NCBI GenBank assembly: GCA_030748735.1
Contig: JASMLK010000115.1
Coordinates: 354-64,353, forward strand
Direction of reading: 5' to 3'
Length of the DNA: 64,000 nt
Origin: Myxococcota bacterium
GTDB taxonomy: Bacteria > Myxococcota_A > UBA9160 > UBA4427
How positions within the stretch are numbered: position 1 is the first letter of the stretch; each line of letters opens with the position of its first letter. The notes under the pieces are model-generated. The model was not told the origin of the DNA, did not search any database, and was given only the letters and a program-made list of their open reading frames with translations. The translations under genes and the position numbers were made by a program. Below are positions 3,811-60,258 of the stretch, piece after piece.

Positions 3811-4755
3811 CTAGAGGATCTTGTCCGCGAGCCGCTTCAACGCCGAAAGATGGATGCAGGTGCCGATCGCGAGCAGGTTGGGGGCCAGGCACTCGCGGCG
3901 GTGATAGATGCCGAGCGCCGTCTGGTCGATGCATGCGCCCTTGAAGAGATTGATCGCGATCCAGTAAAAGAGCCGATCGCGGTCGAGTTCGACGCCGACC
4001 TGATCCGCGAGATATGCCACCCACGCGTCTTCGTCCATCACGCCCATCCCCCGCATCGAGATGAGGTAGGCCCAGTCTTCGTCCGGGTCGCCGATGTGGG
4101 TGAATTCCCAATCGACCAATGCGCGGAGCGCACCGTCCTCGTGGAGATAGTTGCCCGGCCCGGGGTCGCCATGTACGAGGGTCGAGCGGGCGGTTTCGGG
4201 AGCGTTGTTCCGCAACCACTGCGCCGCTTCTTCGATCAGCGGTGACGGCTCGCCGATCAGGTTCGCGCGGTAGACGTCGTACCAGCGCTGGATCTGCAAG
4301 AGCGCCGCATCGCAAGGCCCATCTGGCACCGGGTAGAAGTCGACGCCGACGTCCGCGTAGTCGATGCGATGAAGTTCCGCGAGCGCGTCGACATAGGGGT
4401 CGAGGCTTTCGCGCGTAAAGACACTCGTCCCCTCGACGAAGTCCATCACGAAGAACGGTTGGCCGAGCACGTCCGGGGTCGGGTCGTACGCGATGACGCC
4501 GGCCACCGGATACCCCGCAGCGTGAAGTGCGCGCATCACCTGGACCTCGTCACGGCTATCGCTGCCGAGCAGCCCCCATTGCTCGACGCGAACGACGACT
4601 TTGCGCAGCCCTCGGGCCTTGCCTTCGAGGTCGGCGATGTACATCGCCCGCGACTGGCCCATCGAGATGCGTCCCACGATGGTCACCGTGCACGGGTCGC
4701 CAAGTTCGCTGCCGAGGTATTCCTCGAGCTTCGAGAGTCTCTCGGGTGAGATCAT
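3811..4755 (-). CDS. Phosphotransferase (APH/choline-kinase-like) family protein
   Basis: ORF 3811..4953 with the likely start MISPERL at 4755. Catalytic motifs are LVHGDPGPGNYL (HxDxxxxN) and DWEFTHIGDPDEDWAY (DxE). Confidence 0.8.
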   Translation of the reverse strand: MISPERLSKLEEYLGSELGDPCTVTIVGRISMGQSRAMYIADLEGKARGLRKVVVRVEQWGLLGSDSRDEVQVMRALHAAGYPVAGVIAYDPTPDVLGQPFFVMDFVEGTSVFTRESLDPYVDALAELHRIDYADVGVDFYPVPDGPCDAALLQIQRWYDVYRANLIGEPSPLIEEAAQWLRNNAPETARSTLVHGDPGPGNYLHEDGALRALVDWEFTHIGDPDEDWAYLISMRGMGVMDEDAWVAYLADQVGVELDRDRLFYWIAINLFKGACIDQTALGIYHRRECLAPNLLAIGTCIHLSALKRLADKIL

Positions 4756-5195
4756 TGCGAGCCCGCCATGTTGCGCGCGAAAGCGGAGAACAACCCGATC
4801 GTGCGGCCGAACTCGGCGTCGAGCTGACCCCGCAAGATCGGGTGCAAGGTGGCGCGCACCTTGTCCGCCGTGTCGCCGCCGATGTCCTGGCATGCCACGA
4901 GGAGCTTCGATGCCGCTTCGAACGGTGACGCTTCGGCAAGAGCCTCGGCCCACTGCGGCGCCGTTTCACCCGCAAGGATCTCGCGGGCCTCGTCGACCGC
5001 GCCTTGAAGCTCGACACGACGGCCTTCGTTCAAGTCCTCGCTCAGCAGGTGCTTGACGTACTCGAGGGAACCCACGACCAACTCGGCGCTGTAGCGGGGC
5101 CACTCACCGTCGACACTCGGGGCGACGATGTCTCGCAGTGATTCGATGCAAGAATCGAGAATCGTTTCGACGTCGGGAGCAACAGGTAGCGTCAT
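4752..5195 (-). CDS. Hypothetical helical protein, translationally coupled to the downstream phosphotransferase
   Basis: 147-aa ORF. Its stop overlaps the kinase start (ATGA at 4752-4755). Confidence 0.55.
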   Translation of the reverse strand: MTLPVAPDVETILDSCIESLRDIVAPSVDGEWPRYSAELVVGSLEYVKHLLSEDLNEGRRVELQGAVDEAREILAGETAPQWAEALAEASPFEAASKLLVACQDIGGDTADKVRATLHPILRGQLDAEFGRTIGLFSAFARNMAGSQ

Positions 5196-5234
5196 CGCAC
5201 TTCTCCGCTGGGCAGTTCATGTAGTGAGGTGTCG

Positions 5235-5699
5235 TCAAGCGCCGGTGACGGCGCCTCGTTCCTCGGGGCTCATGGCTCTTCGTGCATCGAGATGGGCCTT
5301 CCAGTCGTCGCACATCCCCTGGGGCCCCTTCCAGTAGTCGATCTCGAGGCTCACCTTTCCATCGCGATACTCGAGACGCGACATCCCCTCGCCGCACAGA
5401 TATCGCCCGCGGTTCTCTGCGCCGTGGTTGTCGTCGGTGATCTCGATGTAGGCCATCCACGTGAGCGAAAGGCCGCGCTCGTTCAAGAAGTACTCTTCGG
5501 GCATCACCTTCAACACGGCCGCCACCGGAGTGAAGAAGTTCTTGATCGCTTGATGTCCGCGCATGGCTTCGGGGTGGCCGAGGATGTCGCGCATCACGGC
5601 GTCGTCGGTCATGAACGCCAGGGGAGCCTCGGGCGTCCCTCCGCTCCACCCGTCTTCGAAGAGTTGGCGCGCCAGTTCGATCTTTTCCGCATCCGTCAT
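5235..5699 (-). CDS. SnoaL-like / NTF2-fold protein
   Basis: MTDAEKIELARQLFEDGWSGG...FMTDDAVMRD...G, the SnoaL polyketide-cyclase-like pattern. Confidence 0.75.
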   Translation of the reverse strand: MTDAEKIELARQLFEDGWSGGTPEAPLAFMTDDAVMRDILGHPEAMRGHQAIKNFFTPVAAVLKVMPEEYFLNERGLSLTWMAYIEITDDNHGAENRGRYLCGEGMSRLEYRDGKVSLEIDYWKGPQGMCDDWKAHLDARRAMSPEERGAVTGA

Positions 5700-5898
5700 G
5701 ACATCGTCCTTCCTCGAGGCAGCGCCAACCCTAAGAGATCACGCAAGGGGCGTCACGGCCATGTCTTTCTTCGACGCTTTGTTGTCGAGTTGCGTCACGA
5801 GAAGAAGATGATCTGCCGGCGCAGCCACGGGCGTTCGGGTTGGGGACCGCGCGGGCGATCGTTAGCATCGCGTGGACACTTCCAATGGAGATTCCGTC

Positions 5899-6726
5899 AT
5901 GGCCGATCCCAGCACCCCACTCCTCGCAGGCAAGGTCGCCGTCGTGCTCGGCGCTTCGAGCGGCATCGGCTGGGCCACCGCCGAACGCTTTGCCGAACAC
6001 GGTGCCAAGGTCGTGGTGGCGGCCCGGCGGCTCGAAAACCTCGAAAAGCTGGCCGCTCGAGTCGACGGCGTCGCGGTGCAATGCGACGGCAGCGACTTCG
6101 GGCAACTCGAAGCCCTCGCCCAGACGACCCTCGAACGCTTCGGCTCGATCGACGTCGCGGTCAATTCCGCTGGGCTCAACCGCCCCTGCCCCATCAAGGA
6201 CATCACCCCCGAAGTCATGCACGAAGTCGCTGACATCCAGTTCTTCGGGGCGACGTACTTCATGCGCCACTTCGCCAACGCCATGGCGGAAACGGGTGGC
6301 GGCTCCCTCATCAACGTCACCTCGGCCACCGCGATCGCGGTCCCGGTTTCGCTTGCGCCCTACGCGGGGGCAAAGGCCGGCATCAACTTCATCACCAAGG
6401 TCGCGGCGCGTGAATACGGCCCCGACCAGGTTCGCGTCAACGCACTCGCGCCGTCGTTCGTCCCGACCGCGATGAACGGCTTCGGGGGAATGACGCCGGT
6501 GGACGAGGCGCGCGTCGAGATCAACGAGGAGGCACCGATCGCTCAGGCCTTTCTCGACGAAACGCCGATCGCCCGCGTGATCACCGTCGACGAGTGTGCC
6601 GACGTCGCGCTCTTCCTGGCGAGCGACCTCTCTTCGTCGATGACCGGCCAGGTGATTCCGGTGGATGGCGGGAACCATCTCTGCAGGCTCCCCAACTTCG
6701 GCCCCGCGCCGCGGCGGCGAAACTAG
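5899..6726 (+). CDS. SDR family oxidoreductase
   Basis: ORF 5872..6726. ATG 5899 lies 8 nt after GGAG. Motifs: GKVAVVLGASSGIG (TGxxxGIG), NSAG, YAGAKAG (YxxxK). Confidence 0.85.
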   Translation: MADPSTPLLAGKVAVVLGASSGIGWATAERFAEHGAKVVVAARRLENLEKLAARVDGVAVQCDGSDFGQLEALAQTTLERFGSIDVAVNSAGLNRPCPIKDITPEVMHEVADIQFFGATYFMRHFANAMAETGGGSLINVTSATAIAVPVSLAPYAGAKAGINFITKVAAREYGPDQVRVNALAPSFVPTAMNGFGGMTPVDEARVEINEEAPIAQAFLDETPIARVITVDECADVALFLASDLSSSMTGQVIPVDGGNHLCRLPNFGPAPRRRN

Positions 6727-7022
6727 ACGGCCCCCAGCCCTGAAGCGTCACGCGCTGCGCTCGTGATCACACACGCCGCACCCCATCGGCACGTCCGCCA
6801 TTCAGATTCGTGCCCGATCGATACAGAATCAACATCGTCTGCAGTCCGACGCGTCGGCGGGTGCAATCACACGGCCCCGCTTGTACCGTCCCGTTCGGAT
6901 CGCGGAACCGATCCCACCTGGATGGTTCCCCTTCCTACGGGACCGACGGCATCTCCTTCGCCCCGCCCATCCGAAACGAGACTTCTGGCTCAAGATCAAC
7001 CACGAGGCACGCTTTGCACTGC

Positions 7023-7826
7023 TTGACTCGCTCTAGTCGCATCGCGTCAGTCGCACTGACCGCGCTGACCACCGTCGCGATGTTGTTAACAACCGTTGCG
7101 CCCGCATTCGCCGAAGGTCTCGACGAAGCCCTCACTGCCGAGGTCAAGGGGACCGAAGCATCGGCCAACTCGCAGCGGCGCATCGACAAGATCTCGACGC
7201 AGACCGACGAGATGGCGACGCAGTACCGGCAGATCCTCGAAGAGATCGATGGGTTGCGTTCCTACAACACCCAACTCGACCGTCTGCTCGGCGCACAGGA
7301 AAGTGAACTCGCGTCGCTGCGCGAACAGATCGACAACGTCACCGGCATCGGTCGCCAGATGACCCCGCTCATGCTGCGCATGCTCGATCGCCTCGAAGAG
7401 TTCATCCAGCTCGACATTCCACTGCACAAGCAGGAACGCGAAGACCGGATCGAGCGGCTGCGCGACATGATGAACCGCGCCGACGTCACCAACGCCGAGA
7501 AGTACCGCCGGATCATGGAAGCCTTCCAGATCGAGAACGAGTACGGCCGCACGGTCGAGGCATACAAGGAAACGATGGAGATCGACGGCGAGGAGCGCAC
7601 CTTGGAGTTCCTGTCGTTCGGGCGGGTCGCGTTGATCTATCAATCACTCGACGGTGAGCAGGCGGCCTTCTGGGACCAACGCACGCGCTCCTGGATTCCG
7701 CTCCCCGATGCCTACAAGAGCGCCGTGAAGAAGGGCCTGCGCGTTGCGCAGAAGCAGACGGCTCCAGATCTCGTGAGGCTGCCCGTCCCAGCACCGGTTG
7801 CAGCGAGCGGAGGTGCGGCGCAATGA
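7023..7826 (+). CDS. ttpB: DUF3450-type coiled-coil periplasmic protein, first gene of the TonB2-type cluster (TtpB-like)
   Basis: ORF 6810..7826. The in-frame TTG at 7023 gives a signal peptide (TRSSRIASVALTALTTVAMLLTTVAPAFA/EG). The coiled-coil body and the C-terminal part (RIMEAFQIENEYGRTVEAY...EFLSFGRVALIY) match my recollection of DUF3450. The stop overlaps the next start. Confidence 0.7.
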   Translation: MTRSSRIASVALTALTTVAMLLTTVAPAFAEGLDEALTAEVKGTEASANSQRRIDKISTQTDEMATQYRQILEEIDGLRSYNTQLDRLLGAQESELASLREQIDNVTGIGRQMTPLMLRMLDRLEEFIQLDIPLHKQEREDRIERLRDMMNRADVTNAEKYRRIMEAFQIENEYGRTVEAYKETMEIDGEERTLEFLSFGRVALIYQSLDGEQAAFWDQRTRSWIPLPDAYKSAVKKGLRVAQKQTAPDLVRLPVPAPVAASGGAAQ

Positions 7827-9265
7827 GCACGCTGAATCCGTTCGACACCCGTAGCCCACGTAGCGCCCCGACTTGCGAGCGAGCTCGCACCCGGTGGCGC
7901 GCCGTGCTTGCGGGCCTGACCGCCGCCCTGGTCCTGACCCCGGTTTCACCATGGATCTCCACGGCATCCGCCACGGAACCTGCAGCCAGCCTCGACGAAC
8001 TCCTCGAGCGCGTGCAGAGCAACTGGCGCAAGGAGCAGGCGACCAACCGCAAGCGCGAGCAGGAATTCAAAGCAGCGCGCGACAACCAGGCGCAGCTTCT
8101 CAAAGAAGCCATCGCAACACGCGACGCCGAGGCCGCGCGCAGTGCAGACCTCGAAAAGAAGTTCGAGACCGGTGAAATCGCTCTCGCCGAACACGAGGAG
8201 ATCCTGGCGAGCCGGCTCGGCAACCTCGGCGAACTCTTCGGTGTGGTGCGACAGGTCGCGGGCGACACGGCGGGGCTGGTGAACGCTTCGTTGATCAGCT
8301 CCCAGTTCCCCGACCGCGAGGCCTTCCTCCGCGAGTTGGGGCAGAGCAAGTCGCTCCCGGCGGTCGAAGACCTCGAAAAGCTCTACGGCTCCCTGCTCGA
8401 GGAAATGATCGAGTCTGGCAAGGTCGTGCGATACACGGCGCCCGTCGTCGCGGTCGACGGTGAGCAACACCAGGAGGAAGTCGTCCGCGTCGGTGCCTTC
8501 AACGTCGTGACGGAAGGCGAGTTCCTCGTCTGGTCACCCGAAACGCGCAAGCTCGCCGCGCTGGGCCGACAGCCCTCCGGCAAGTACCTCGCGACCGCGA
8601 AAGAAATCGAAGGCCTGCAGAGCGGTCATGCGCCGTTCGCGTTGGATCCGGCACGCGGCGCGACACTCCAGGTCTTGATCAAGACCCCGTCGTTTTCCGA
8701 GCGCATCCAGTTCGGGGGTGCTGTCGGTTACACGATCATCGGGATCGGCATCATCACGTTCTTGATCGGTCTCCTGCGACTCGCCACGCTCTTCATGACC
8801 AGCGCGAAGGTGAAGGCGCAGCGCAACAACCCCAACGACCCCGGCAACAACCCGCTCGGCCGCGTTCTCTCGGTCGGCAAGGAATACGCTTCGGGCGACG
8901 TCGAGACCCTGGAACTCAAGATGGAGGAAGCGATCCTCCAGGAAACCGCGAAGCTCGAACGCTTCTTGTGGCTGATCAAGGTCGTGAGCGCCGTCGCGCC
9001 GCTGATGGGCCTGCTCGGCACGGTCACCGGCATGATCCGCACGTTCCAGATCATCACGCTGTTCGGTACCGGTGACCCGAAGCTCATGGCGGGTGGCATC
9101 TCGGAAGCGCTGGTGACCACCATGCTGGGCCTGCTCGCGGCGATCCCGCTCGTGCTGCTCCACAGCTGGCTCACGAGCATCAGCAAGGGCGTTTCGGACG
9201 TGCTCGAAGAACAAGGCACCGGCATCGTCGCCGCGCAGGCGGAGGTCGGCGGAGGAGCACCGTGA
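7823..9265 (+). CDS. ttpC: MotA/TolQ/ExbB proton-channel family protein with a long N-terminal coiled-coil domain (TtpC-like)
   Basis: 480 aa. The C-terminus (APLMGLLGTVTGMIRTF...ISEALVTTMLGLLAAIP) is the MotA/TolQ/ExbB signature. ATGA overlap upstream and GTGA overlap downstream. Confidence 0.85.
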   Translation: MSTLNPFDTRSPRSAPTCERARTRWRAVLAGLTAALVLTPVSPWISTASATEPAASLDELLERVQSNWRKEQATNRKREQEFKAARDNQAQLLKEAIATRDAEAARSADLEKKFETGEIALAEHEEILASRLGNLGELFGVVRQVAGDTAGLVNASLISSQFPDREAFLRELGQSKSLPAVEDLEKLYGSLLEEMIESGKVVRYTAPVVAVDGEQHQEEVVRVGAFNVVTEGEFLVWSPETRKLAALGRQPSGKYLATAKEIEGLQSGHAPFALDPARGATLQVLIKTPSFSERIQFGGAVGYTIIGIGIITFLIGLLRLATLFMTSAKVKAQRNNPNDPGNNPLGRVLSVGKEYASGDVETLELKMEEAILQETAKLERFLWLIKVVSAVAPLMGLLGTVTGMIRTFQIITLFGTGDPKLMAGGISEALVTTMLGLLAAIPLVLLHSWLTSISKGVSDVLEEQGTGIVAAQAEVGGGAP

Positions 9266-9840
9266 TCTTGCGCCTCACTCAGCTCACCGAAGTCGTCGGA
9301 GACTTCATGGAAGCGGGCGGGAACGTCCTGTGGGCGATCTCGGCCGTGACCTTCCTGATGTGGATCTTGATCCTCGAGCGTGAGTGGTATTTCCATCTCG
9401 TCTATCCACGGGATCTCGAGCGCATGATCGAGACCTGGAACCAACGCAGCGACCGCGCTTCGTGGTACGCAGCCGCGATCAAGCGGCGCATGATCGCCGA
9501 GCTGAGCGAGAAGCTCACCCATGCCCTGCTCCAGATCCGCACGCTGGTCGCGGTTTGTCCCTTGCTCGGGCTGCTCGGCACCGTCACGGGGATGATCCAG
9601 GTATTCGACGTGATGGCGCTGGCGGGCAGCGGCAACGCGCGGGCCATGGCATCGGGTGTGAGCCTCGCAACCATTCCGACGATGGCGGGCATGGTGGCCG
9701 CGCTATCGGGGCTTTACTTCGCCCATCAGTTGGAACGGTTCGCGAAGACCCAGATCCAGATCGCGTCTGATCAGTTGATCACGAGCCACGACCGGGAAGC
9801 GCCAGCCGCAACCCGCACGAGTGACGACGATGCGTTTTAG
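9262..9840 (+). CDS. exbB: ExbB/TolQ family proton channel
   Basis: 192 aa with LLGLLGTVTGMIQVF...GVSLATIPTMAGMVAA signature. Position in the cluster supports the call. Confidence 0.85.
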   Translation: MILRLTQLTEVVGDFMEAGGNVLWAISAVTFLMWILILEREWYFHLVYPRDLERMIETWNQRSDRASWYAAAIKRRMIAELSEKLTHALLQIRTLVAVCPLLGLLGTVTGMIQVFDVMALAGSGNARAMASGVSLATIPTMAGMVAALSGLYFAHQLERFAKTQIQIASDQLITSHDREAPAATRTSDDDAF

Positions 9841-10234
9841 AAAGTCCAAACCGAAAGACGATGTCGACGTCGACATGACCCCGATGCTCGACGTCGTCTT
9901 CATCATGTTGATCTTCTTCATCGTCACGACATCGTTCGTGAAGGAGTCGGGCCTCGACGTGAGTCGCCCCGACGCCGCAACCACCGAAAAGAAGGAGCGT
10001 GGCAACATCCTCGTCCGCATCGCTCACAACGACCAGGTCTGGATCGACCGCCGCATGGTCGATGTTCGCGCCATTCGTCCTCACATCGAAAGGATGCACG
10101 CCGAAAACCCGAACGGTTCGGTCGTGATTCAGGCAGACCCCAATTCGAGCAACGGCCTGCTGGTCCGCGTGATGGACGCCGCCAAGCTCGCCGGCGTGCA
10201 CAACGTCTCGCTCGCAGCCCAGGTGGTTCAGTAG
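9830..10234 (+). CDS. exbD: ExbD/TolR family biopolymer transport protein
   Basis: MRFRKSKPKDDVDVDMTPMLDVVFIMLIFFIV, the typical ExbD N-terminus. An alternative start exists at 9821. Confidence 0.85.
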   Translation: MRFRKSKPKDDVDVDMTPMLDVVFIMLIFFIVTTSFVKESGLDVSRPDAATTEKKERGNILVRIAHNDQVWIDRRMVDVRAIRPHIERMHAENPNGSVVIQADPNSSNGLLVRVMDAAKLAGVHNVSLAAQVVQ

Positions 10235-10242
10235 GGCTCGCC

Positions 10243-10863
10243 ATGTTGCAGCGTTATCTCGTCAGCATCGGACTCGCCGGCTTCGTCACCTTCGGCCTTC
10301 TCTTCATGATGCAGTCGCTGATCTCGATGCAGGGCAAGGGTGCCACGGACACCGACGCGACCCCGATGCTCGAGTTCGTCCGGTTGAAGCGGGAAAGCGC
10401 GACCGAAGCCCGCAAGCGCACGCTGCCGAAGAAGAAGGAGAACAAACCGCCGCCGCCGCCGCCGCCCGACTTCGCAACCTCGCAGGCACCGCGCCCCGGC
10501 ACCGATTCGGTCGCGATCGCAATGCCCGACCTCGGCACCGGCGTAGAACTCAGCGGCGGCGTGACGCTCGGGACCGCGGCCGCCGACACGGAAGCCACCC
10601 CGATCCTGCGCGTTCCGCCCATCTACCCACCCCGTGCCGCAGAGCGTGGCATCGAGGGCTGGGTCGACGTGAAGTTCACGATCAGCCCGATCGGGGCGGT
10701 GGTCGACCCCGAGGTCATCGCATCGCATCCCTCTTCGATCTTCAACCGCGCAGCACTGCGCACGATCAAGAAGTGGAAGTACCGCCCCAAGGTGGTAGAC
10801 GGCGTGGGCGTGCCGCAGACCGGCATCGTGACGCGCATCCAGTTCGACCTCAATGATTCATGA
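10243..10863 (+). CDS. tonB: TonB family energy transducer
   Basis: N-terminal TM helix, Pro-rich spacer (KKKENKPPPPPPPDF), and a C-terminal TonB domain (PIYPPRAAERGIEGWVDVKFTISPIGAVVDPEVI...A). Confidence 0.85.
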   Translation: MLQRYLVSIGLAGFVTFGLLFMMQSLISMQGKGATDTDATPMLEFVRLKRESATEARKRTLPKKKENKPPPPPPPDFATSQAPRPGTDSVAIAMPDLGTGVELSGGVTLGTAAADTEATPILRVPPIYPPRAAERGIEGWVDVKFTISPIGAVVDPEVIASHPSSIFNRAALRTIKKWKYRPKVVDGVGVPQTGIVTRIQFDLNDS

Positions 10864-12212
10864 AGGACCCAGGCTTGACACGCGTGGCTGACAACCGAAC
10901 TCGACGTCTTTCCCGACGCATCGCGCACGCGGTGCTCGTGGCTTCGCTGCTGTTCGCCGGCCTCCCCTTCGTCACCCCGAGTGACACCGCGTGGGCGGCC
11001 GAGAGTTCGAAGAAGAAGAAGAAGTCCAAGCGCAAGAGCTTCGTATTGAGCCCCGTCGTATTCAAGAAGATGAATACGATCCACAAGCTCCTGCAAGAAG
11101 ACGAATACGCCGAGACCGTGCCGCTGCTCCAAAAGCTCGCCGGTCGCTCCAAGCTGACCGATTTCGAGAAGGGCAGCATCTACGAGACGCTCGGTTTCGC
11201 GTATTCGTCCCTCGCTGACTACCCGAAGGCGGCTGCGAGCTTCGAAAAGAGCCTGGCCACGGACGCGCTCCCCGACCTGACGCTCTTGAACATGCGCTTC
11301 AACCTCGCGCAGCTGTATCTCGCACTCGAGGATTTCCCCAAGGCCATCGCGCACCTCGAAGCTTGGATGGCAGAAGTCGAGACGCCCAGCCCAGAGGGGC
11401 ACTACTACCTCGGCGCGGCCCACGCCCAGCTCGGAGAGGCGAAGAAAGCGCTGCCCTACATCGCAGAAGCCGTCGCGCGGTCAACGAAGTTCAACGAAAC
11501 CTGGAACCAGTTGCTGCTGGCCCTGTATTTCGAACTCAAGCAGTACGACGAAGCGGTCGGCGTACTCGCAGCGCTGATCAACCACTCTCCGCGCAAGTCG
11601 TATCTGCAGCAACTCCAAGGGGTCTATGGCGAGCTCGGCCAGGAAAAGAAGGCGCTGGCCGTGATGGAGCTGAGTTATCGCCAGGGGTACCTCGAGAACA
11701 GCAGTGAGCTTCGCAACCTGGCCCATCTGTACCTCTATCACGAAGTACCGAGCCTGGCGGCGGAGGTTCTCTCGAAGGGGCTCGAAGACGGCACGATCGA
11801 CGGCGATCGAGAGTCGTGGGAACTACTGGGCGACGCCTACATCCACGCGCGTGAATACAAGAAGGCCGTCGCCCCCCTTCGCAAGGCCGCCGAACTTGCC
11901 GAAGACGGTGAGGTCTACCTCAAGCTGGCGCGCATCCAACTGGAGTACCAGGACTGGGAGGAGTCGCTCGGCTACCTCGAGCGCGCCATCGAGAAGGGCC
12001 AACTCGACAACCCCGGCGATGCGCAATTGATGCTCGGGATCTCCAGCGCCAAGTCCGGACGCTTCGGTTCTGCGCGCAGGGCTTTCGAGCAGGCCGCGAA
12101 GAACGAGGACAGCAAGAAGTCCGCAATCAACTGGCTGCGACATCTCGAAGAACTCGAGGCGGCCGCCGCGCGCGAGCGGGACGCCGGGGCCTCGGTTTCG
12201 CCCCAGGCTTGA
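10860..12212 (+). CDS. ttpD: TPR-repeat protein, last gene of the TonB2-type cluster (TtpD-like)
   Basis: 450 aa. ATGA overlap with tonB. Signal-like N-terminus followed by repeated TPR-like helices (YxxLGxAYxxLxDYxKA). Confidence 0.7.
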   Translation: MKDPGLTRVADNRTRRLSRRIAHAVLVASLLFAGLPFVTPSDTAWAAESSKKKKKSKRKSFVLSPVVFKKMNTIHKLLQEDEYAETVPLLQKLAGRSKLTDFEKGSIYETLGFAYSSLADYPKAAASFEKSLATDALPDLTLLNMRFNLAQLYLALEDFPKAIAHLEAWMAEVETPSPEGHYYLGAAHAQLGEAKKALPYIAEAVARSTKFNETWNQLLLALYFELKQYDEAVGVLAALINHSPRKSYLQQLQGVYGELGQEKKALAVMELSYRQGYLENSSELRNLAHLYLYHEVPSLAAEVLSKGLEDGTIDGDRESWELLGDAYIHAREYKKAVAPLRKAAELAEDGEVYLKLARIQLEYQDWEESLGYLERAIEKGQLDNPGDAQLMLGISSAKSGRFGSARRAFEQAAKNEDSKKSAINWLRHLEELEAAAARERDAGASVSPQA

Positions 12213-24876: not shown

Positions 24877-24903
24877 GGCGAACCGAGCTGGTAACGTGGG
24901 GCC

Positions 24904-25275
24904 ATGAAGTCCCGCGCGCTCAGAACCACCCTACGCGCCCTGCACGTCCTGGCGTTCGGTGCCTACTACGGTGGGCATCTCTTCGTCGACGACCCCACAG
25001 CGCTCACCCCAGCGCTTCTGGCGGTGGTCCTCACCGGCGCGGCGTTCGCGGCGTTCGAGATCGCGCGTGCGCCCGCCTGGGTTCACCAGCTACGAGGCGT
25101 GTGCACGTACCTCAAGGTCGTCTTGCTGTTTCTGTCGGCGGCATTCCCCGAGCAGCGCGTGTTGCTCCTCACGCTGATCGTGATCCTCGGCGTGGTGGTC
25201 AGCCACGCACCGAGCGACTTCCGTTACTACTCGGTGCGCGACCGCCGCGTGATTCCGACCCACGGCAAAGGGTGA
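24904..25275 (+). CDS. Hypothetical membrane protein (about 4 TM helices)
   Basis: 123-aa hydrophobic ORF downstream of the globin gene. No family recognised. Confidence 0.5.
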   Translation: MKSRALRTTLRALHVLAFGAYYGGHLFVDDPTALTPALLAVVLTGAAFAAFEIARAPAWVHQLRGVCTYLKVVLLFLSAAFPEQRVLLLTLIVILGVVVSHAPSDFRYYSVRDRRVIPTHGKG

Positions 25276-31828: not shown

Positions 31829-33166
31829 CTAGCGATTCGTCAGCGCATCGCGAATCGCGTAGTCGCGCTTCAGGTTCCGGGCGGCGAGAACGAACATCGC
31901 GATGCCGATCGACGAGATGCCCGCGACGATCAGCATCGCGTAGCGAAGACCGTCGTCTCCGTACTGCTCGCTGAGCACGTCGCTCAAGAAGCCCGCGACG
32001 AGTGGCCCCATCCCCAGGCCGATCAGATTGAGGATGAAGAACAGTACGGCCGACGTCAGTGCGCGCATGGCCGGGGGCACCAGCGCGTGACAGATGGCGA
32101 GGCACGGCCCGAGGTACGTGTTGATCAACACGGAAACGACGAACACGAGGGGAACCACGACCCACGTGGTGTCGAGGAGCAAGTATGGAATGGCCACGAC
32201 CATGGCGAGCGCGCCGCAGACCGCAGGTAGCCACATGTACCAGCGGTAGTCGCGAGAGGCGAGCCCGTCGGAGAGACGCCCGCCGAGCAGCGTGCCGACG
32301 AGGCCCCCTCCACCACCACCCAACGCGAGGATCAGCCCGAGTTCTGCACCGGTGATCCCGTGACTGCGCTCCAGGAACAGGGGCGTGAAGTTTCCGTTTC
32401 CATAGCCCGCGAAGGCCGTGAGTCCCGTGCCCATCGCGATGTACCAGAAGGAGCGGTAGCGACGCAGCAAGGTCAGGGTTTCGCCCAGTGACGGTTGATA
32501 GGCCGCGGCCTGCGTCGACTCGAAGCGCCCTCGCTGCGGCTCGCGCACGGTCAGAAAGAAGATCGCCGCGAACACCAGGCCGGGGATTCCCACGACCATG
32601 AAGGCCATTCGCCAGCCGAAGAACTGCTCCACCGTCCCGCCGATCACGAAACCCGCAAAGACTCCGAGATGCAGTCCGGCCGAATAGATCGACATCGCGG
32701 TCGCACGACGTTCGGGCGGGTAGTAGTCGCTGATGATCGCGTGGGCGGGCGGGCTGCCGCCGGCTTCACCGATACCCACGCCGATGCGCGCGAGCAACAG
32801 TTGGAAGTAGTTGGTCGCCAAACCAGACAGCGCCGTCATCCCGCTCCAGACCGCGATCGCCAACGCGATGATGTTCTTGCGATTGCCACGGTCGGCCCAG
32901 TAGGCGATGGGGATACCGGCCGTGATGTAGACCAGGGCGAACGAAAAGCCGGAAAGCAAGCCAAGCTGCGTATCCGACAACCCCATTTCAGCCTTGATCG
33001 GCCCCTGCAGGATCACCAGGATCTGACGGTCGATGAAGTTGAGCGCATAGGCGATCGTGAGCAGCACGAGTGCGTAACGTGCGGCGCCCGACTCGGCGCT
33101 CGCGGTCGCTTCGGATTCCCCGCCGGATGCATGGCGGTCTTCGGAACCAGGCGTTTCGGTGCTCAA
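31829..33166 (-). CDS. MFS transporter
   Basis: 12-TM-type hydrophobic profile. MFS loop motif near TM2-3 (GIPIAYWADRGNRKN). Confidence 0.85.
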   Translation of the reverse strand: MSTETPGSEDRHASGGESEATASAESGAARYALVLLTIAYALNFIDRQILVILQGPIKAEMGLSDTQLGLLSGFSFALVYITAGIPIAYWADRGNRKNIIALAIAVWSGMTALSGLATNYFQLLLARIGVGIGEAGGSPPAHAIISDYYPPERRATAMSIYSAGLHLGVFAGFVIGGTVEQFFGWRMAFMVVGIPGLVFAAIFFLTVREPQRGRFESTQAAAYQPSLGETLTLLRRYRSFWYIAMGTGLTAFAGYGNGNFTPLFLERSHGITGAELGLILALGGGGGGLVGTLLGGRLSDGLASRDYRWYMWLPAVCGALAMVVAIPYLLLDTTWVVVPLVFVVSVLINTYLGPCLAICHALVPPAMRALTSAVLFFILNLIGLGMGPLVAGFLSDVLSEQYGDDGLRYAMLIVAGISSIGIAMFVLAARNLKRDYAIRDALTNR

Positions 33167-44309: not shown

Positions 44310-44978
44310 ATGGCGGATCGCACGTCGACACCGGAGCGAATACTCGACGCCAGTCGCAGGCTCTTCAACGAGAAGGGCTATGCCGCAACGACGCTCGCGG
44401 AGATCGCAGCGAGCGTGGGAATCGCACCGGGCAACCTGACGTATCACTTCCCGACCAAGCGCGACCTCGTGGCGGAACTCGAAAGGCGCATGCGCGAGAC
44501 CGTACGGGCGGGGCGAGAGCGCTCAGGGCGCGGCGATGTCGCCGACGAGTACGTCGAGCGCGTCTTGCTGTCCATGAACCACGCGTGGGAGAATCGGTTC
44601 TTTCTGCGCGACTACGCCCAGTTCACGAACAACCCCGACGCACTCCGGCGAGACCCCGACATGGCCGCCGATCTCGAGCAACTCCACTCGCTGCTGCGTC
44701 GCATGCAGAAGGATGGCTTGTTCCGTCGCGATCTGGATTTCGATCTACGCGTGCTGGCCCGCTCTCTCTGGATCGTCAGCCGCTACTGGATGGATCACCT
44801 GCGCGAAATGGAAGGCCTCGACCAGGTCACCTGGGCGGACCAGGAGCGCGGTTTCCAACACCACTTCGGCGTACTGCTCCCCTATCTCACCGCGTCGGCA
44901 CGACGCGACCTCGAATCTGCCGTGGTTCGGGTCGCGAGCAAGCTGGCCGTCGAAGAAGAAAGGAACAACCATGATTGA
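44310..44978 (+). CDS. TetR/AcrR family transcriptional regulator
   Basis: N-terminal HTH (ILDASRRLFNEKGYAATTLAEIAASVGIAPGNLTYHFPTKRDL). The stop overlaps the start of the next gene (ATGATTGA). Confidence 0.85.
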   Translation: MADRTSTPERILDASRRLFNEKGYAATTLAEIAASVGIAPGNLTYHFPTKRDLVAELERRMRETVRAGRERSGRGDVADEYVERVLLSMNHAWENRFFLRDYAQFTNNPDALRRDPDMAADLEQLHSLLRRMQKDGLFRRDLDFDLRVLARSLWIVSRYWMDHLREMEGLDQVTWADQERGFQHHFGVLLPYLTASARRDLESAVVRVASKLAVEEERNNHD

Positions 44979-45723
44979 CTTGTTGCTCGGCTGGGCGTCA
45001 CTCGCCGTCTTTGCGGCTGCGATGCGACTGTGGATTGCCAACATCAAACGCGTCGAAATCCCCGAGAATCGCAGCGGCTTCGTTGCGGCCTGGCTCGCTG
45101 CGGTGGGCCTGGGCGTGGTTGCGCTCGCAGGCGAACCCGGCTGGCTCGGCGGCATTCCCGCCAGCCTCGGCGTCTTCGCGTCTTCGTTCGTCCTGTTCAC
45201 CGTCACCATCAGCAAGCAGAAGGTTGGCAGCGACGCGATTCGAGTTGGTGCCACGATTCCAGCGTTCACGGCCACCGATGAACACGGCGAGACGTTCGAC
45301 TCCGCGAGCCTGGCCGGGCATCCGGTGCTCATCAAGTTCTTCCGCGCTCACTGGTGACCCTACTGTGTCGCCGAGTTACGGCGATGGGAAGAACTGAGGC
45401 CCGAGTTCGACGCCCGCGGAGTGCAGATCCTGACGGTCAGCACCGACACGCCCGAAGAACTCGCCAAGGGACACCCGCGGCATCGCATTGGCGCCACGAT
45501 GCTCTCGGATCGAAACCTCGAGGTGACCGACCGCTTCGGCCTGCGCAATGCGGGCATTCACTCGGGGCCGCCCCCGCCGATCGCACCGAAAGCCCTCCCC
45601 GTCCCAACGTCCTTGCTCGTCGACGCAGAGGGAACGGTGCTGTGGATGGACCAGTCCGAGAACTACCAGCGCCGTTCGGAACCCGACCACGTGCTCGGGG
45701 CGCTGCGCGAGCACCTGGGCTGA
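44971..45723 (+). CDS. Membrane-anchored peroxiredoxin-like redoxin (AhpC/TSA-redoxin fold), predicted selenoprotein with Sec encoded by TGA 45355-45357
   Basis: ORFs 44713..45357 and 45421..45723 share one frame and are separated only by TGA. Read-through gives GHPVLIKFFRAHW-U-PYCVAELRRWEELRPEFDARGVQILTVSTD, with the TGA at the first Cys of WCPxC. A hairpin sits 9 nt downstream. ATG 44971 follows GAAAGGAA. Three N-terminal TM helices. Confidence 0.7.
45367..45385 (+). promoter_or_regulatory. Candidate bacterial SECIS hairpin
   Basis: GUCGCCG-AGUUA-CGGCGAU (7 bp including one G.U). The stem starts 9 nt after the UGA. Loop G-U lies within the +17..+21 window. Confidence 0.5.
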
Positions 45724-52963: not shown

Positions 52964-54112
52964 ATGCCGCAAGTCAGCGAGACGATTCCCGAAGCGTTGA
53001 AGCCGCGCGTCGATGCCGCACTCGCATGGTTCAACGCGTCCGCTGATGCGGCCGAAGACGAGTTCAAGGTGACGGGCATCCTCGACGCAGACGAGGCGCT
53101 GAGTGGGTCAGACGAGCTACGGCTCATCCTGTGCGGCGGGGATCGCTGCGAGCAACGCTCGTTTCGGGTCGGTGGCACCGTAGATGCGTGGGAGATCGAC
53201 TTCGCCGATTCTGCCCTGGCACCGCAGGACGCGAAGCCGCAGGCCGAGCTCGACCCGCCGCCGGGGCCACGCCTTCGTTGGCTCGACGAAAAACTCTCGC
53301 AACACGCCTTCGTCGTCCTGCTCTTCTACCGGGGCTTCTGGTGACCTCCGTGTCGCTCCGAGTTGCGGAGCTACATGCGCGAGGGCGTCGTCCGGAAGAT
53401 CCGCGCCGCAGGTGGCGAGGTCTATGCCGTCACCAGCGAGCCGCAGTATTTGGCCAATCAGGCCCACGAACACTGGGAGCTCGACTTCGAGAACGTCGGT
53501 GACCCCCATCAGGAGATCTCGAGAACCTGCAGTGAGCGCGGTTGGCTGACCCTCTATGCGAACAAGGGCGACCTCGAGTTTCTGCAACGCGGGGCGGACT
53601 GGGAGGTCGAGCATCCGAAGGGCTACTTCCAGCCGGGCGTGCTGGCCCTGACGAACACAGGGCGCGTTCTCTACCGCTGGCGCTCGGTGCCGTCGGCCGA
53701 GAACCTGAGCGGCACACTCGCGCGACCCACGGCTCGGCACGCATGGGGTGCCATCGAGAGATCACTCGCAGCCCGTGACGCCGCCGGAGATGCCGCGCAC
53801 GACGACAACCCCGAGATCGACCAGGCACCGCCGCCGCGAATCGTCTTCGTCGCTGCATTGATCGCGAACGGCTGGTTCGTAGGCGTGAAGTCGTTCGCCT
53901 ACTCGCCCGGGGTGGGATCGGTCCCCTCGCGCTTCGCCAAAGCCGCATCGCGTTGGCTGCTCTTCCTGGCGTTCTGGGCCGCCGCACTGGTCTGCTTGCC
54001 GACCGTGCTCGTCGGGTTGGCCTTTGCCGGCTGGGTTGTATGGATCGTGCGGGACATCCGGCGTGTGCTCGGTGGCCTGGATGTGCAGGAGGAACTCGTC
54101 GCGAATCGGTGA
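52964..54112 (+). CDS. Three-part redoxin protein (unknown N-domain, thioredoxin-fold redoxin domain, C-terminal TM helices), predicted selenoprotein with Sec encoded by TGA 53342-53344
   Basis: ORFs 52931..53344 and 53363..54112 share one frame and are separated only by TGA. Read-through gives HAFVVLLFYRGFW-U-PPCRSELRSYMREGVVRKIRAAGGEVYAVTSE. A hairpin sits at the same offset as in the first case. ATG 52964 follows GGAAGGAGA. Confidence 0.65.
53351..53375 (+). promoter_or_regulatory. Candidate bacterial SECIS hairpin
   Basis: UGU-C-GCUCCG-AGUUG-CGGAGC-U-ACA (6-bp core plus 3 bp across a C/U mismatch). The core starts 10 nt after the UGA. The loop lies at +17..+21. Confidence 0.5.
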
Positions 54113-56108: not shown

Positions 56109-56935
56109 GCAGCGCGCAACCCGACACCCGAGCCCCCTGCACGGAGCTGCTCCTCGTCGCCCTGGCGGCGGGCCTCGCCATGGCCATCCTGTTCCTCGTC
56201 GGCAGCGTTGGCTGGGAAGGTCGTGAGGACACCTGCCTCGTCGGCGGCCAGTGCTTCTGCGAGCGCGATCACGGAGGACTCGTCCGGCAACCCGCCAACA
56301 CCGCCTCGAACCTCGGCTTCGTGATCGCCGGTCTGCTCGTCGCCTGGAGCCTGGGGCGGGAGCGCATGCGCGGACGCCTCCCCCGACCGGGCAACCCGAT
56401 GACCGAGACCCGCTTCTACCCCGGCTTCTACGCCCTGGCGGTCGCGCTGCTCGGACCCGGGAGCATGGCGCTCCACGCCTCCCTCCTCTGGTGGGGCAGC
56501 GTGCTCGACCTCGTCTCCATGAACGTCTTCATCGGCTTCGTGTTCAGCTACGCCCTGGTCCGCTGGCGCGGCCTCGGCGTCGGCGCCTTCCTGGCCAGCT
56601 TCCTGCTCCTGAACGCCGTGCTCCTCGCCATCAAGCTGATCCACGGCCACGGCTCCGCCGCCTTCGGGGTGACGGCCGTCGTCTCCCTCGCCATCGAGCT
56701 TCGCATCCGGCGAGAGGGTCGGGTGACCGGCGACGGCCGCTACCTGGCCGCGGCCGCGATCACCTTCGTCGTGGCCTTCGTCGTCTGGCTCGGCAGCGAC
56801 AACGACGGCTGGCTGTGCGATCCGGACTCCTGGCTCCAGGGGCACGCGTTCTGGCACCTGGGCTGCGCCGGATCGACGGCCTTCCTCTACCTCTACATGC
56901 GTTCCCAGCACGACGCGGGAGGCGAGTCGGCATGA
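56105..56935 (+). CDS. Ceramidase-domain-like polytopic membrane protein
   Basis: GTG 56105 lies in the frame of ORF 55565..56935. CFCERDHGGLVRQPANTASNLGFVIAGLLV and the C-terminal GHAFWHLGCAG resemble the alkaline ceramidase family (E-P-x-N-T-x-S-N ... H-x-x-W-H). About 7 TM helices. Confidence 0.6.
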   Translation: MSSAQPDTRAPCTELLLVALAAGLAMAILFLVGSVGWEGREDTCLVGGQCFCERDHGGLVRQPANTASNLGFVIAGLLVAWSLGRERMRGRLPRPGNPMTETRFYPGFYALAVALLGPGSMALHASLLWWGSVLDLVSMNVFIGFVFSYALVRWRGLGVGAFLASFLLLNAVLLAIKLIHGHGSAAFGVTAVVSLAIELRIRREGRVTGDGRYLAAAAITFVVAFVVWLGSDNDGWLCDPDSWLQGHAFWHLGCAGSTAFLYLYMRSQHDAGGESA

Positions 56936-59517
56936 GCCACGGCGCATCGGGACCCCGTATCGGCCTCGCGTTCCGCTTCCACGCGAACTTCTACCACTCC
57001 TATCGCGGAGACACGCCGGACGAGCTCGGCTTCGGCATGGACATGCGCATCATCCGGCGGATCCTCGAGGTGCTCGACGCCTGGAACGACCGGGGCCTGC
57101 CGGTCCGCGCAACCTGGGACGTCGACAACCATTACTCCCTCGAGAAGATCATCCCCGAGCACTGCCCCGACATCCTCGAGGCCTGGCAGCGGCGCGTGGC
57201 CGACGGCCGGGACGAGTTCGAGCTCATGTCGTACAACAACGGCCTGGCCAACGCGGCCACCGCCGCGGAGTTCGACGCGAGCATCGAGCGGGCCCTGCGC
57301 AACCCCGAGGGCTCGGGGTTGGAGGACCTGTTCGCGTCCCACGCGCGGATCGTGCGGCCCCAGGAGATGATGTACACGCCGCGCCACCTGGATCTGTATC
57401 CCCGGCTCGGCATCGACACGATCAGCCTCTTCTACAGCGCGGTTCCCTTCAACGCCTTCAGCAACTTCGTTGCGCCCCTGCCCCTGGAGCAGCGCTACAA
57501 CCCGCTGATCCTGTGGCACCCCGACGCGGAGGGGACGATGTCCCTCCTCCCCGCCTACAACCACGGCGACATCGCCGACCAGCTCTCCTTGCGCCGCTGG
57601 CTCGAGCGCATGCGCCGCGCCCAGCTCGCCCTGTCCGAGCCACGGGACCTGCTGCTGCTCATCGACGCCGACGCCGACGACGAGTTCTGGTACGGCTACG
57701 GCGCCCCCGTCCTGCCCCGCCTGATCGCCATCGCCGGGGGCCTCGACGGCCTGCTCGCGAGCGTCGCGGACCTCGACTTCGTGGACTTCACGACCCCCGG
57801 CGCCTACCTCGCCGACCACCCGCCGGTGGACCGCATCCGGATCGACCACGATACCGCCGACGGCTCCTACGACGGGTTCGCGAGCTGGGCGGAGAAGTGG
57901 TCGAGTCATCAGCTCTGGACCGGGATCGAGCGGGCTCGCCTGCTCGAGATGCAGGCGCGACGGCTCCTGTCCGAGATGCCAACCGGACCCGATCGTGAGG
58001 CCCTCGAGCAGAAGCTCGCGCGGAGCTTCGAGTCGCGGCTGCTCTCGCTCTCCACCACGCACTTCGGGCTGACCTCGCCCGTCGTGAACAAGAGGCGGCT
58101 GCGCACGGCGACCGGGCTCGTCGCCCGCGCGGTGGTCGAGGCCGAGCAGGCGTTCCTCGGGGCCGCCGCCGGCATCACCGGCGCGGAGCGACCCGCTGGC
58201 GAATCGCGGATCCCGCTCCAACTCGTCGACTTCCCCCGCGGCGTCGACACGGATGCGGTTCGCTACGAGCCCCGCCCGTCGCGGGCGTGGGTCCGCATTC
58301 CCGTCGACACAGCGGTGGCGGAGGCGCGGGCGGTCGAGGTGGTGGACGCCGCGGGAATGCCCCACGCGGCCGTCCTGCGGCCCCGCGCCGAAGGGTCCGG
58401 AGAACTCTCCCTGGTCGCCGCCCTCGCGGCGTGCGAGCGGCGAGACCTGACGGTCTCCCTCGACGGATCGCCGGGCGCCACCGTGCCGCTGCCCGGTGAG
58501 CCGGTTCGCACCGATCCCACGAGCCTCGACAACGGGCTGCTGCGCCTGCGCTTCGACGCCGAAGGACGCTGGGTCGGGCTCGAAGGGCCGGGCGGCGAGC
58601 TCGGCGACGGCCGGTCTCCGTTGGTGGGATCGGCGGTCCGGTATCGGCGCCAGCTCTGCGAAGCCGGGCCGTGGAGCGTCGTGAAGAACGACGTCGTGGG
58701 TGGGGGACTCCTGGGCGCGGTCCGGGTCGAGACCGCGATTCCCCTGCCGAAGGGCGCGGGAGCGGTCCGGGTCCAGAGAGAGTTCACCCTGGTGTCGGGG
58801 CTCCCGCATCTGTACTGCGAGACCTGGGTCAGCTATCCCGAGACCGAGTCGAAGAAGTACGACCGCGCCCGGGCCCGCGCCCTCGAGCAGGCCTACGACG
58901 GCCACTGGCGCGAGGCCATGCCCTGCGAGTTGCGCCCCGCCCTGTTCGGTCGCCCCGACCGGCCCCTCCGCATCTGGAAGCACAATCACCTCGGCCACGT
59001 CGGCCACTACGACCTCGACCACGGGAACCACACCGGGCGCCACGAGGTCGACACCCTCAACAACCACGTCACCTGCGGCTGGGTCGCCGCGAGCGACCGC
59101 GAGCGGGGGCTCCTGGTCGCCCAGACCAGCTCCGCGACCGCGGGCATGGCCTTTTGCCCGATCCGTCTGCGCGAAACGGAATCCGGAACGCGCCTGTTCC
59201 TGAACCCCTTCGGCGCCTACCACGGCCGCCAGCTGCCCTACCCCACCCGCTACAGCGGCGTCGGCTTGCTGGCCGCCTGGCTCGGCGCGCCGACCCTCGA
59301 CCCCCAGGCCCCCTCCTTCAACGGGAATCAGCAGCACCTCTCGTTGATGCTCGCTCCCTATGCGGGTGACCGTCCGCCGCAGGCGCTGTGCGACGCGGCC
59401 ATGGCCTTCCACTACCCCTACGCCGTCGTCTCCGACGCCCCGAAGATCGCCACGCCGTCGACGCGCCGCTGGCACCACCCGGGGGTCGAGCACGACGAGC
59501 AGGAGACTGCCCGATGA
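56932..59517 (+). CDS. Large (861 aa) glycoside-hydrolase-like protein (GH38/GH57-type N-terminal barrel plus GH38-like C-terminal beta-domains)
   Basis: ATG 56932 overlaps the upstream stop (ATGA). N-terminus IGLAFRFHANFYHSYRGD... The C-terminal stretches NGLLRLRFDAEGRWVGLEG and GWVAASDRERGLLVAQ...RLFLNPFG resemble the layout of alpha-mannosidase C-terminal domains. Assignment is by pattern only. Confidence 0.55.
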   Translation: MSHGASGPRIGLAFRFHANFYHSYRGDTPDELGFGMDMRIIRRILEVLDAWNDRGLPVRATWDVDNHYSLEKIIPEHCPDILEAWQRRVADGRDEFELMSYNNGLANAATAAEFDASIERALRNPEGSGLEDLFASHARIVRPQEMMYTPRHLDLYPRLGIDTISLFYSAVPFNAFSNFVAPLPLEQRYNPLILWHPDAEGTMSLLPAYNHGDIADQLSLRRWLERMRRAQLALSEPRDLLLLIDADADDEFWYGYGAPVLPRLIAIAGGLDGLLASVADLDFVDFTTPGAYLADHPPVDRIRIDHDTADGSYDGFASWAEKWSSHQLWTGIERARLLEMQARRLLSEMPTGPDREALEQKLARSFESRLLSLSTTHFGLTSPVVNKRRLRTATGLVARAVVEAEQAFLGAAAGITGAERPAGESRIPLQLVDFPRGVDTDAVRYEPRPSRAWVRIPVDTAVAEARAVEVVDAAGMPHAAVLRPRAEGSGELSLVAALAACERRDLTVSLDGSPGATVPLPGEPVRTDPTSLDNGLLRLRFDAEGRWVGLEGPGGELGDGRSPLVGSAVRYRRQLCEAGPWSVVKNDVVGGGLLGAVRVETAIPLPKGAGAVRVQREFTLVSGLPHLYCETWVSYPETESKKYDRARARALEQAYDGHWREAMPCELRPALFGRPDRPLRIWKHNHLGHVGHYDLDHGNHTGRHEVDTLNNHVTCGWVAASDRERGLLVAQTSSATAGMAFCPIRLRETESGTRLFLNPFGAYHGRQLPYPTRYSGVGLLAAWLGAPTLDPQAPSFNGNQQHLSLMLAPYAGDRPPQALCDAAMAFHYPYAVVSDAPKIATPSTRRWHHPGVEHDEQETAR

Positions 59518-59892: not shown

Positions 59893-60258
59893 TGGTGGAG
59901 GCGGCGGGAATCGAACCCGCGTCCGCATGGCGTCCAGAGAACGCGTCTACGTGTGTAGTCCTTGCTCGATTTCGGAAGCACCGGCCGCAAGGACGGAGCA
60001 AGTACTCCCTAGCTACACGTGGATCTCACTTCCGGTTACGGTCTAGCAGCGATCGGAAGCCAGTCTCCTGATGACTCTCGCGACCCGCTAGGAGACGTCA
60101 CGGACGAGAGCCCGCTTACCTAATTTCTGTTAGGCAGCGAGAGCGTAGTTTTCGTCGGCAGATAAAAAGCTACCAACTGTGATGCTTCTTTAACGACGAA
60201 CATCAAAGTCGACACGCAGCGCTCACCTTCGACCACCCGTCGAAGCCAAGTCGCCCCC
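59893..60258 (-). ncRNA. ssrA: tmRNA (transfer-messenger RNA)
   Basis: Reverse strand: 5' GGGGGCGACTTGGCTTCGACGGG ... 3' GGACGCGGGTTCGATTCCCGCCGCCTCCACCA. Acceptor stem has the G3.U pair. The tag reading frame GCC GAC GAA AAC TAC GCT CTC GCT GCC TAA gives ADENYALAA (60130..60159). Confidence 0.92.

Follow-up and report, generated by a model that had tools for sequence, protein, structure and literature searches.

A probable membrane-anchored Prx-like selenoprotein gene with an in-frame UGA codon and a conserved SECIS-type hairpin in a 64-kb bacterial DNA stretch

Bacterial selenoproteins with a peroxiredoxin-like (Prx-like) domain have been described from both genomes and environmental sequences. 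In the report by Zhang & Gladyshev 2008 (PMC2398784), the family "Prx-like 1" (pfam00578) carries a UxxC motif, where U is selenocysteine (Sec), comprises 225 Sec-containing sequences and 2,740 cysteine (Cys) homologues, and is among the most abundant selenoprotein families of the ocean in the Global Ocean Sampling (GOS) data. Selenoproteins called Prx-like thiol:disulfide oxidoreductases were first predicted in Geobacter and other Deltaproteobacteria, and also appear in Zhang et al. 2006 (PMC1794560). A 2026 review lists them under PF00578 with a UxxC/UxxU motif and WP_010940744.1 as an example, and grades the family as predicted with high confidence and biochemically uncharacterised (PMC13188914). 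The same source gives criteria for the bacterial Sec insertion sequence (bSECIS): an apical loop of 3-9 nt, 4-16 bp in the upper stem, a G at loop position 1 or 2, usually with G or U after it, a UGA-to-loop distance of 16-37 nt and a minimum free energy of -7.5 kcal/mol or lower (PMC13188914). In this paper, we report a computational analysis of the locus 44971-45723 (forward strand) in a 64-kb stretch of contig JASMLK010000115.1, the whole of which is referred to here as the window. The locus is very probably one gene for a 250-residue selenoprotein in which the UGA at 45355-45357 is decoded as selenocysteine.

The features of the gene and its predicted product are as follows:
44971..45723, forward strand: complete predicted selenoprotein coding sequence of 250 codons, of which codon 129 is for Sec, followed by the stop TGA 45721-45723.
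45355..45357, forward strand: putative Sec-encoding UGA, residue 129 and first residue of U-P-Y-C, assigned from the Sec/Cys pairing with homologues.
45364..45366, forward strand: codon of Cys132, the predicted resolving Cys and second residue of UxxC with U129, assigned from HMMER alignments to 2cx3 and 4nmu.
45366..45386, forward strand: predicted bSECIS hairpin, with a 7-bp stem (45367-45373/45379-45385), an optional U45366-G45386 pair and the loop AGUUA at 45374-45378.
44977..45207, forward strand: predicted N-terminal membrane anchor made up of three hydrophobic helices, at about residues 3-26, 35-54 and 58-79.
45244..45645, forward strand: thioredoxin-fold AhpC/TSA (redoxin) domain, residues 92-225, assigned with Pfam and Foldseek.

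Translation gives a single 250-codon frame from ATG 44971 to TGA 45721-45723, whose sole interruption is TGA 45355-45357 in the local motif FFRAHW-[TGA]-PYC. The peptide across this codon is ...LIKFFRAHW-[TGA]-PYCVAELRRWEEL..., and the longer read-through peptide consists of ...HPVLIKFFRAHW before the TGA and PYCVAELRRWEELRPEFDARGVQILTVSTDTPEE... after it. A mechanical list of open reading frames (ORFs) picks up again at GTG 45421, 21 codons past the TGA. The read-through product matches Pfam AhpC-TSA over residues 92-225 (3.7e-26; PF00578 91.9 bits, cut-off 26) and Redoxin (1.1e-18), and aligns over its full length with Cys homologues of 250-290 aa that share its start position. In the source metagenome's gene calls (JGI 3300035204, contig Ga0373647_0000134, 64.9 kb) the locus is cut into fragments of 128 aa and 100 aa. 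The first-pass annotation of this DNA had described the interrupted frame and its resumption, a continuous AhpC/TSA-redoxin domain on read-through, a membrane anchor, a 7-bp SECIS-like hairpin 9 nt past the UGA and a probable selenoprotein with U-P-Y-C, and had expected standard annotation to split the locus; its statements about the sequence were all correct, and each of these proposals is supported by the results given here.

A protein search returned about 47 full-length database homologues with an invariant HWCPYC, and TGA 45355-45357 aligns with the first Cys of that motif. In the family alignment the Sec column is an invariant Cys across 43 Cys homologues, and the Cys132 column is likewise invariant. 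The search also gave several short proteins that stop exactly at ...KFFRGHW or ...KFFRAHW; in their contigs (six metagenome contigs) the stop is TGA in all cases and the frame runs on as PYCVAELRRWEEL....

The first-pass annotation had further proposed that homologues be checked for Cys or TGA at this codon. A genome scan, restricted to one genome per species, returned 45 loci, giving 46 family loci for analysis with the window included. The position of codon 129 is TGA in 36 of the 46 and TGC or TGT in the remaining 10; a distant relative (L052), which stands outside these 10 Cys-form loci, has TGT in WCPCC. The search itself does not explain the predominance of Sec, because the scan patterns were biased towards Cys forms, one of them requiring HWC. 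The TGA carriers are metagenome-assembled genomes (MAGs) labelled as Halieaceae/Haliea/Halioglobus, other Pseudomonadales, Myxococcota/"Deltaproteobacteria" and Binatia. Every complete TGA form has an intact open frame of 116-132 residues past the TGA, which closes with the family C-terminal motif W-x-D...Y-x-x-R-S-x-P. Compared pairwise, the 36 Sec forms have a mean identity of 0.57 past the TGA, 0.52 in the preceding part of the redoxin domain and 0.31 in the membrane region. Decay downstream of the TGA in relatives, which had been named beforehand as an outcome that would speak against a selenoprotein, was thus not seen, and the conservation past the TGA reads as the opposite of a pseudogene pattern.

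Some of the individual relatives have peculiarities of their own. Locus L009 (CAXQPB010000011.1, positions 1-6714, from a 'Nitrosopumilus sp.' MAG) carries an orthologue of TGA form with 56% identity to the window protein, on a contig of 64% G+C. Nitrosopumilus genomes are AT-rich, and the contig looks mis-binned and bacterial. Frameshifts around and past the TGA occur in the closest relatives of the window gene from two other assemblies, namely L006 (233-1260) and protein P0052, and the contig name of L006 ('...2x') suggests a low-coverage long-read assembly. Sequencing errors appear a more likely cause than decay, because the shifted frames still encode family sequence.

The hairpin GUCGCCG-AGUUA-CGGCGAU occupies 45367-45385, and an alternative lower CCC/GGG stem could pair 45358-45360 with 45386-45388. 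The hairpin alone folds at -11 kcal/mol, a stability reached by none of 200 shuffled sequences, and the 41 nt from the UGA onward at -13.5 kcal/mol, reached by two of 200. With a 5-nt loop bearing G-U at positions 2-3, a stem of 7-8 bp, a spacing of 16 nt and the latter folding energy, the element agrees with every published bSECIS criterion quoted above. The TGA forms at other loci share a stem of 7-8 bp, the loop AGUUR and 16 nt between TGA and loop. TGA and hairpin occur together at 42 other loci from different organisms, far more than chance would give. When 38 TGA forms are aligned without gaps, standard pairing holds in 98.1% of cells across the seven pairs of the stem; three pairs do not vary at all, whereas pair 26-36 has a compensatory CG to GC change in two species and GU in a third. 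The RNAalifold consensus lengthens the stem by a Y-G pair below it. A covariance model, a check suggested by the first-pass annotation, was trained on the other species alone and gave the site in the window 60.8 bits (E about 1e-19). Its second-best match in the window, 32430-32475 on the reverse strand (26.2 bits), was taken as a chance match; its TGA is out of frame (cTG ACC), and it lies within an uninterrupted major facilitator superfamily (MFS) transporter gene and has a loop of 21 nt instead of 5 nt.

Codon usage in the TGA forms follows the hairpin. Codons +4 to +9 past the UGA are nearly fixed as GTC GCC GAG TTR CGG CGA, while the adjoining Pro, Glu and Leu codons are free to vary. The Leu codon of the loop is TTA or TTG in all 36 Sec forms, compared with 126 of 1054 Leu codons elsewhere in the same genes (12%) and one of the 10 Cys forms. 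The Arg codon that closes the stem is CGA in 32 of the 36 Sec forms, against 57 of 614 Arg codons elsewhere in these genes and none of the 10 Cys forms. Fisher p-values for these biases range from about 1e-8 to 1e-32 and are indicative only, as the sequences are related.

The AlphaFold2 model of the closest Cys homologue (P0001, of the same length; mean predicted local distance difference test score, pLDDT, 92) has helices at residues 3-26, 35-54 and 58-79 followed by a thioredoxin-fold domain, and the hydropathy peaks of the window protein itself are the other basis for the three-helix anchor. Foldseek searches against the PDB placed Bcp4 (3hjp) on top, with ResA (4nmu), BcpB and AhpE also retrieved, at target-normalised TM-scores of 0.8-0.89; the nearest solved structures are therefore BCP/PrxQ/AhpE peroxiredoxins and ResA, about equally close. 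The best PDB match by sequence is ResA 4nmu (9.4e-9). Counts of Lys plus Arg per sequence are 2.4 in loop 1, 1.4 after helix 3, 0.2 at the N-terminus and 0.5 in loop 2, so that, by the positive-inside heuristic alone, the redox domain would lie on the cytoplasmic side.

The first-pass annotation had placed the TGA at the first, peroxidatic or nucleophilic, Cys of the family. The first position of a CxxC-type motif stands; the peroxidatic role does not. In HMMER alignments to the Aeropyrum pernix BCP 2cx3 (FFPAAFSPVC), U129 lines up with the Ser of S-P-V-C and C132 with the peroxidatic Cys, while against ResA 4nmu both U129 and C132 fall on the CxxC. The peroxiredoxin signature PxxxTxxC is absent, the aligned residues being R125, U129 and C132, with Pro and Thr missing. 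NCBIfam models of both classes score well below their cut-offs: among peroxiredoxins, BCP 52.2 bits (cut-off 140), PrxU 24.7 (270), Tpx 19.7 (123) and AhpC 17.7 (272); among oxidoreductases, ResA 46.6 (170), TlpA 24.3 (230) and DsbE 18.2 (123). A peroxiredoxin with a peroxidatic Sec was rejected on the alignment, as the Sec sits on the Thr/Ser position of true peroxiredoxins. Taken together, the alignments, the missing signature and the sub-threshold scores argue that the product is a predicted Prx-like thiol:disulfide oxidoreductase of CxxC type, with Sec as the attacking residue, and not a peroxiredoxin.

A further protein, P0050 (161 aa, from a 654-bp ENA contig), joins the two types in register. 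Its N-terminal half resembles a genuine peroxiredoxin (...SHPKDFTPVCTTEL...) and its C-terminal half is of the Prx-like family type (...RIITVSTDTPAQL...LPVPTS...WMDQSENYQRRSDP...). Natural recombination or a chimeric assembly could have produced it, and it directly shows the Thr of TxxC corresponding to the Sec position.

The rest of the window bears on how this organism reads UGA. TGA is the commonest ordinary stop, ending 26 of the 45 likely genes, including the gene at 44971-45723 itself; therefore the genetic code is standard and not reassigned. A scan of the window for in-frame TGAs with 50 stop-free, coding-like codons on either side gave three sites only: 45355, a gene end at 25273 and 53342. 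The TGA at 25273 has no redox motif and is most simply the end of ORF 24895-25275. The site at 53342 belongs to another gene:
52964..54112, forward strand: second predicted Prx-like UxxC selenoprotein gene, 382 aa when read through UGA 53342-53344.

This gene lies 8 kb from the one at 44971-45723. Its peptide at the TGA is FYRGFW-[TGA]-PPCRSELRSY (a WUPPC redoxin), its read-through product matches Pfam AhpC-TSA (6.6e-9) and carries hydrophobic C-terminal segments, and the hairpin GCUCCG-AGUUG-CGGAGC at 53355-53371 has the same loop type and 16-nt spacing as that at 45366-45386. Metagenome annotation cuts it into fragments of 126 aa and 245 aa with no Pfam match, and orthologues with U at the Sec position occur in the GOS Prx-like 1 set. 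A second redoxin gene with both a TGA and a SECIS-type hairpin lends independent, if indirect, support to UGA being read as Sec in this organism.

Several points weigh against this interpretation. Selenium incorporation in the window protein is predicted from its sequence, and topology and substrate we only infer. None of selA, selB, selC (tRNA-Sec) and selD was found within the 64-kb window by ARAGORN, the JGI gene table or Pfam searches of about 45 ORFs. Rfam gave no SECIS-type match, either over the whole window at gathering thresholds or over 45330-45430 at permissive E-values, although this null is uninformative, since such bSECIS elements may be unmodelled there. The conserved peptide V-A-E-L-R-R dictates part of the hairpin, and the Cys form L037 still folds a similar stem, whereas L027 and L008 do not; the Sec forms are set apart by their G-U loop and U-A closing pair. 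Since the element hardly varies, covariation is limited to one compensatory pair, and the synonymous sites are thus the stronger evidence.

Three other explanations were considered. The locus could be a pseudogene or a sequencing or assembly error, in which a TGC or TGT codon of a Cys-type redoxin became TGA by nonsense mutation and the downstream part is decaying or an artefact. In its favour are the two fragments produced by standard gene calling and the frameshifts in two related contigs of low-coverage assemblies (L006 and the contig behind P0052). However, an identical TGA occurs in 36 species-level genomes and six metagenome contigs, the downstream frame is intact in every complete copy and as conserved as the upstream part, and the synonymous sites past the TGA are under extra, not relaxed, constraint. 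As the TGA forms have neither an elevated ratio of nonsynonymous to synonymous substitution (dN/dS) nor stops past codon 129, we regard this explanation as effectively refuted, with a negligible chance of being correct.

It is also very improbable that translation truly terminates at 45357, to give a membrane protein of 128 residues, with the C-terminal part made as a protein of its own from GTG 45421. A GTG start is indeed present 21 codons past the TGA, and this is exactly the call of the metagenome gene caller, but such a division would sever the thioredoxin fold within the active-site helix and lose residues 129-149, including the invariant P-Y-C-x-x-E-L-R-R-W. The 21 intervening codons are among the most conserved of the family, the Cys homologues are single polypeptides, and the residue encoded at GTG 45421 is variable (Val here, and any of Ile, Val, Leu and Phe among the homologues), so that the start is unconserved. 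An equally small probability is given to read-through of the UGA by other means, through a near-cognate Cys or Trp tRNA or a reassigned code, with the hairpin as a generic stimulator. A UGA followed by C, as here, is generally regarded as a leaky context for termination, and no Sec machinery was found in the window. Against reassignment stands the use of TGA as the commonest ordinary stop; the loop sequence and spacing of the hairpin fit the SelB-type bSECIS consensus, the recoded site is a redox-active Cys in a classic Sec/Cys pairing, and the family has already been classed as a selenoprotein family.

If the UGA at 45355-45357 is decoded as selenocysteine, the established bacterial pathway suggests how this would proceed. 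The hairpin at 45367-45385 would be bound by SelB-GTP-Sec-tRNA(Sec) while the UGA occupies the ribosomal A site, and Sec would be inserted, in a SelB-dependent manner, in place of termination mediated by release factor 2. Sec129 would then take the N-terminal, nucleophilic position of the CxxC-type motif in W-U-P-Y-C, and Cys132 would resolve it with formation of a selenenylsulfide. The predicted product is a membrane-tethered selenol/thiol:disulfide oxidoreductase ("Prx-like") with three N-terminal helices. Should its redox domain face the cytoplasm, it would represent a selenol oxidoreductase at the membrane surface of largely aerobic bacteria, acting on a membrane-associated substrate yet to be discovered.

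The distribution of the two forms was also examined in a rough neighbour-joining tree with midpoint rooting, in which the Cys forms make up one nested clade and one singleton. The nine Cys forms of the clade (L027, L033, L037, L039, L043, L044, L046, L048 and L050) lie among Sec forms, an arrangement compatible with a replacement of Sec by Cys. The Cys forms keep the peptide V/T-A-E-L-R-R, which in the Sec forms encodes the SECIS stem, but with CTG for Leu and CGC for Arg, and the SECIS is nearly identical in sequence across Pseudomonadota, Myxococcota and Binatia. It is conceivable, though we hold this only tentatively and with more doubt than confidence, that in the three-helix membrane-anchored subgroup of Prx-like 1 Sec and not Cys is both the ancestral and the majority state.

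The practical value of these results is an annotation fix rather than a discovery. Both TGA redoxin genes are split in the metagenome gene calls, and at least one GenBank MAG copy (P0051) was deposited truncated at the TGA. As no NCBIfam model reaches its cut-off for the subgroup, automated pipelines will keep mis-calling the gene. The general picture of selenoproteins is unchanged, because the family, its subgroup, motif and Sec position have been in print since 2008 (PMC2398784). What is added is a clean and unusually well-conserved example of a bacterial SECIS described in detail, the predominance of the Sec form over the Cys form in the sampled genomes of the membrane-anchored subgroup, a corrected catalytic position and a second mis-annotated putative selenoprotein gene on the same contig.

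Two further features lie immediately upstream of the gene:
44960..44965, forward strand: likely ribosome-binding site AAGGAA, 5-6 nt 5' of the ATG, read from the sequence.
44310..44978, forward strand: TetR-family regulator gene, assigned from the ORF list and TetR-family NCBIfam matches.

The ATG at 44971 overlaps the stop of the TetR gene (ATGATTGA), and the two genes may be co-transcribed. When six window neighbours were compared with all loci by tblastn, the TetR linkage was not kept in most other genomes, and a downstream gene of 232 aa was shared by the closest relatives L003 and L006 only. Since the neighbourhood is not conserved beyond the closest relatives, no functional inference was drawn from operon structure.

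Elsewhere in the window, a transfer-messenger RNA (tmRNA) gene with the tag peptide ADENYALAA lies at 59893-60258 on the reverse strand (ARAGORN and Rfam, 156.9 bits) and is the only structured RNA that these two programs detected. An ORF of 1,096 codons at 56227-59517 (forward strand) has a strong coding-type composition, with a G+C fraction at third codon positions (GC3) of 0.83, and no Pfam match at E <= 1e-5. A cluster at 6744-12212 (forward strand) comprises DUF3450, two MotA/ExbB genes, ExbD and a TPR protein, and the window also encodes a PEP-CTERM protein, a TonB-dependent receptor and two sulfatases. Our impression is that these genes would suit a polysaccharide-degrading marine Gram-negative bacterium, such as the Halieaceae-like ones in which many homologues occur.

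In comparison with known systems, the hairpin resembles elements of the E. coli fdhF type and the bSECISearch consensus in its position inside the coding sequence directly past the UGA, its small apical loop, the G-U at loop positions 2-3 and a spacing and folding energy within the limits. It differs in its 16-nt spacing, the minimum allowed, in a stem without an identified bulged U, and in being a predicted SECIS only. The protein shares its fold and Pfam family with BCP/PrxQ and PrxU, and its Cys132 aligns with their peroxidatic Cys; however, the Sec of PrxU is at the peroxidatic position (TxxU), whereas that of the window protein is at the Thr/Ser position. Its likeness to ResA/TlpA/DsbE lies in a W-C-x-x-C centre that aligns residue for residue with ResA 4nmu (target-normalised TM-score about 0.85) and in the membrane tether by N-terminal helices. 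Unlike those proteins, it has three predicted helices instead of one and, by the positive-inside heuristic, would be cytoplasmic instead of periplasmic in orientation, and no cytochrome c maturation genes adjoin its gene.

The described selenoproteins are closer still. With the Prx-like thiol:disulfide oxidoreductases, of which the Geobacter example is likened by description, the window protein has in common an AhpC/TSA-type thioredoxin fold and Sec as the first residue of a CxxC-like motif. The hosts of its own family are mostly MAGs of aerobic marine Gammaproteobacteria, Myxococcota and Binatia, whereas the Geobacter-type hosts are anaerobic Deltaproteobacteria. On Sec use in Halieaceae or Binatia, a literature search returned nothing relevant. 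The remark in the first-pass annotation that the class is not new agrees with Dataset S1 of PMC2398784, where orthologues are listed under '#Prx-like 1'. Among them, JCVI_READ_1092403976278 (...KFFRGHWUPYCVAELRRWEELRGEFD...) has 73% identity to the window protein over 132 aa (E 5e-72), and the full-length JCVI_READ_1929089, which has a membrane N-terminus of three helices of the same kind, is 56% identical over 232 aa (E 5e-90). The text and supplement of that report, as far as available, treat Prx-like 1 as a broad group and do not single out the membrane anchor, the SECIS of the subgroup or a Sec majority within it. In Pfam domain, UxxC motif and Sec position nothing essential differs, and the predicted window protein belongs, by all these features, to the known "Prx-like 1"/"Prx-like thiol:disulfide oxidoreductase" selenoprotein family.

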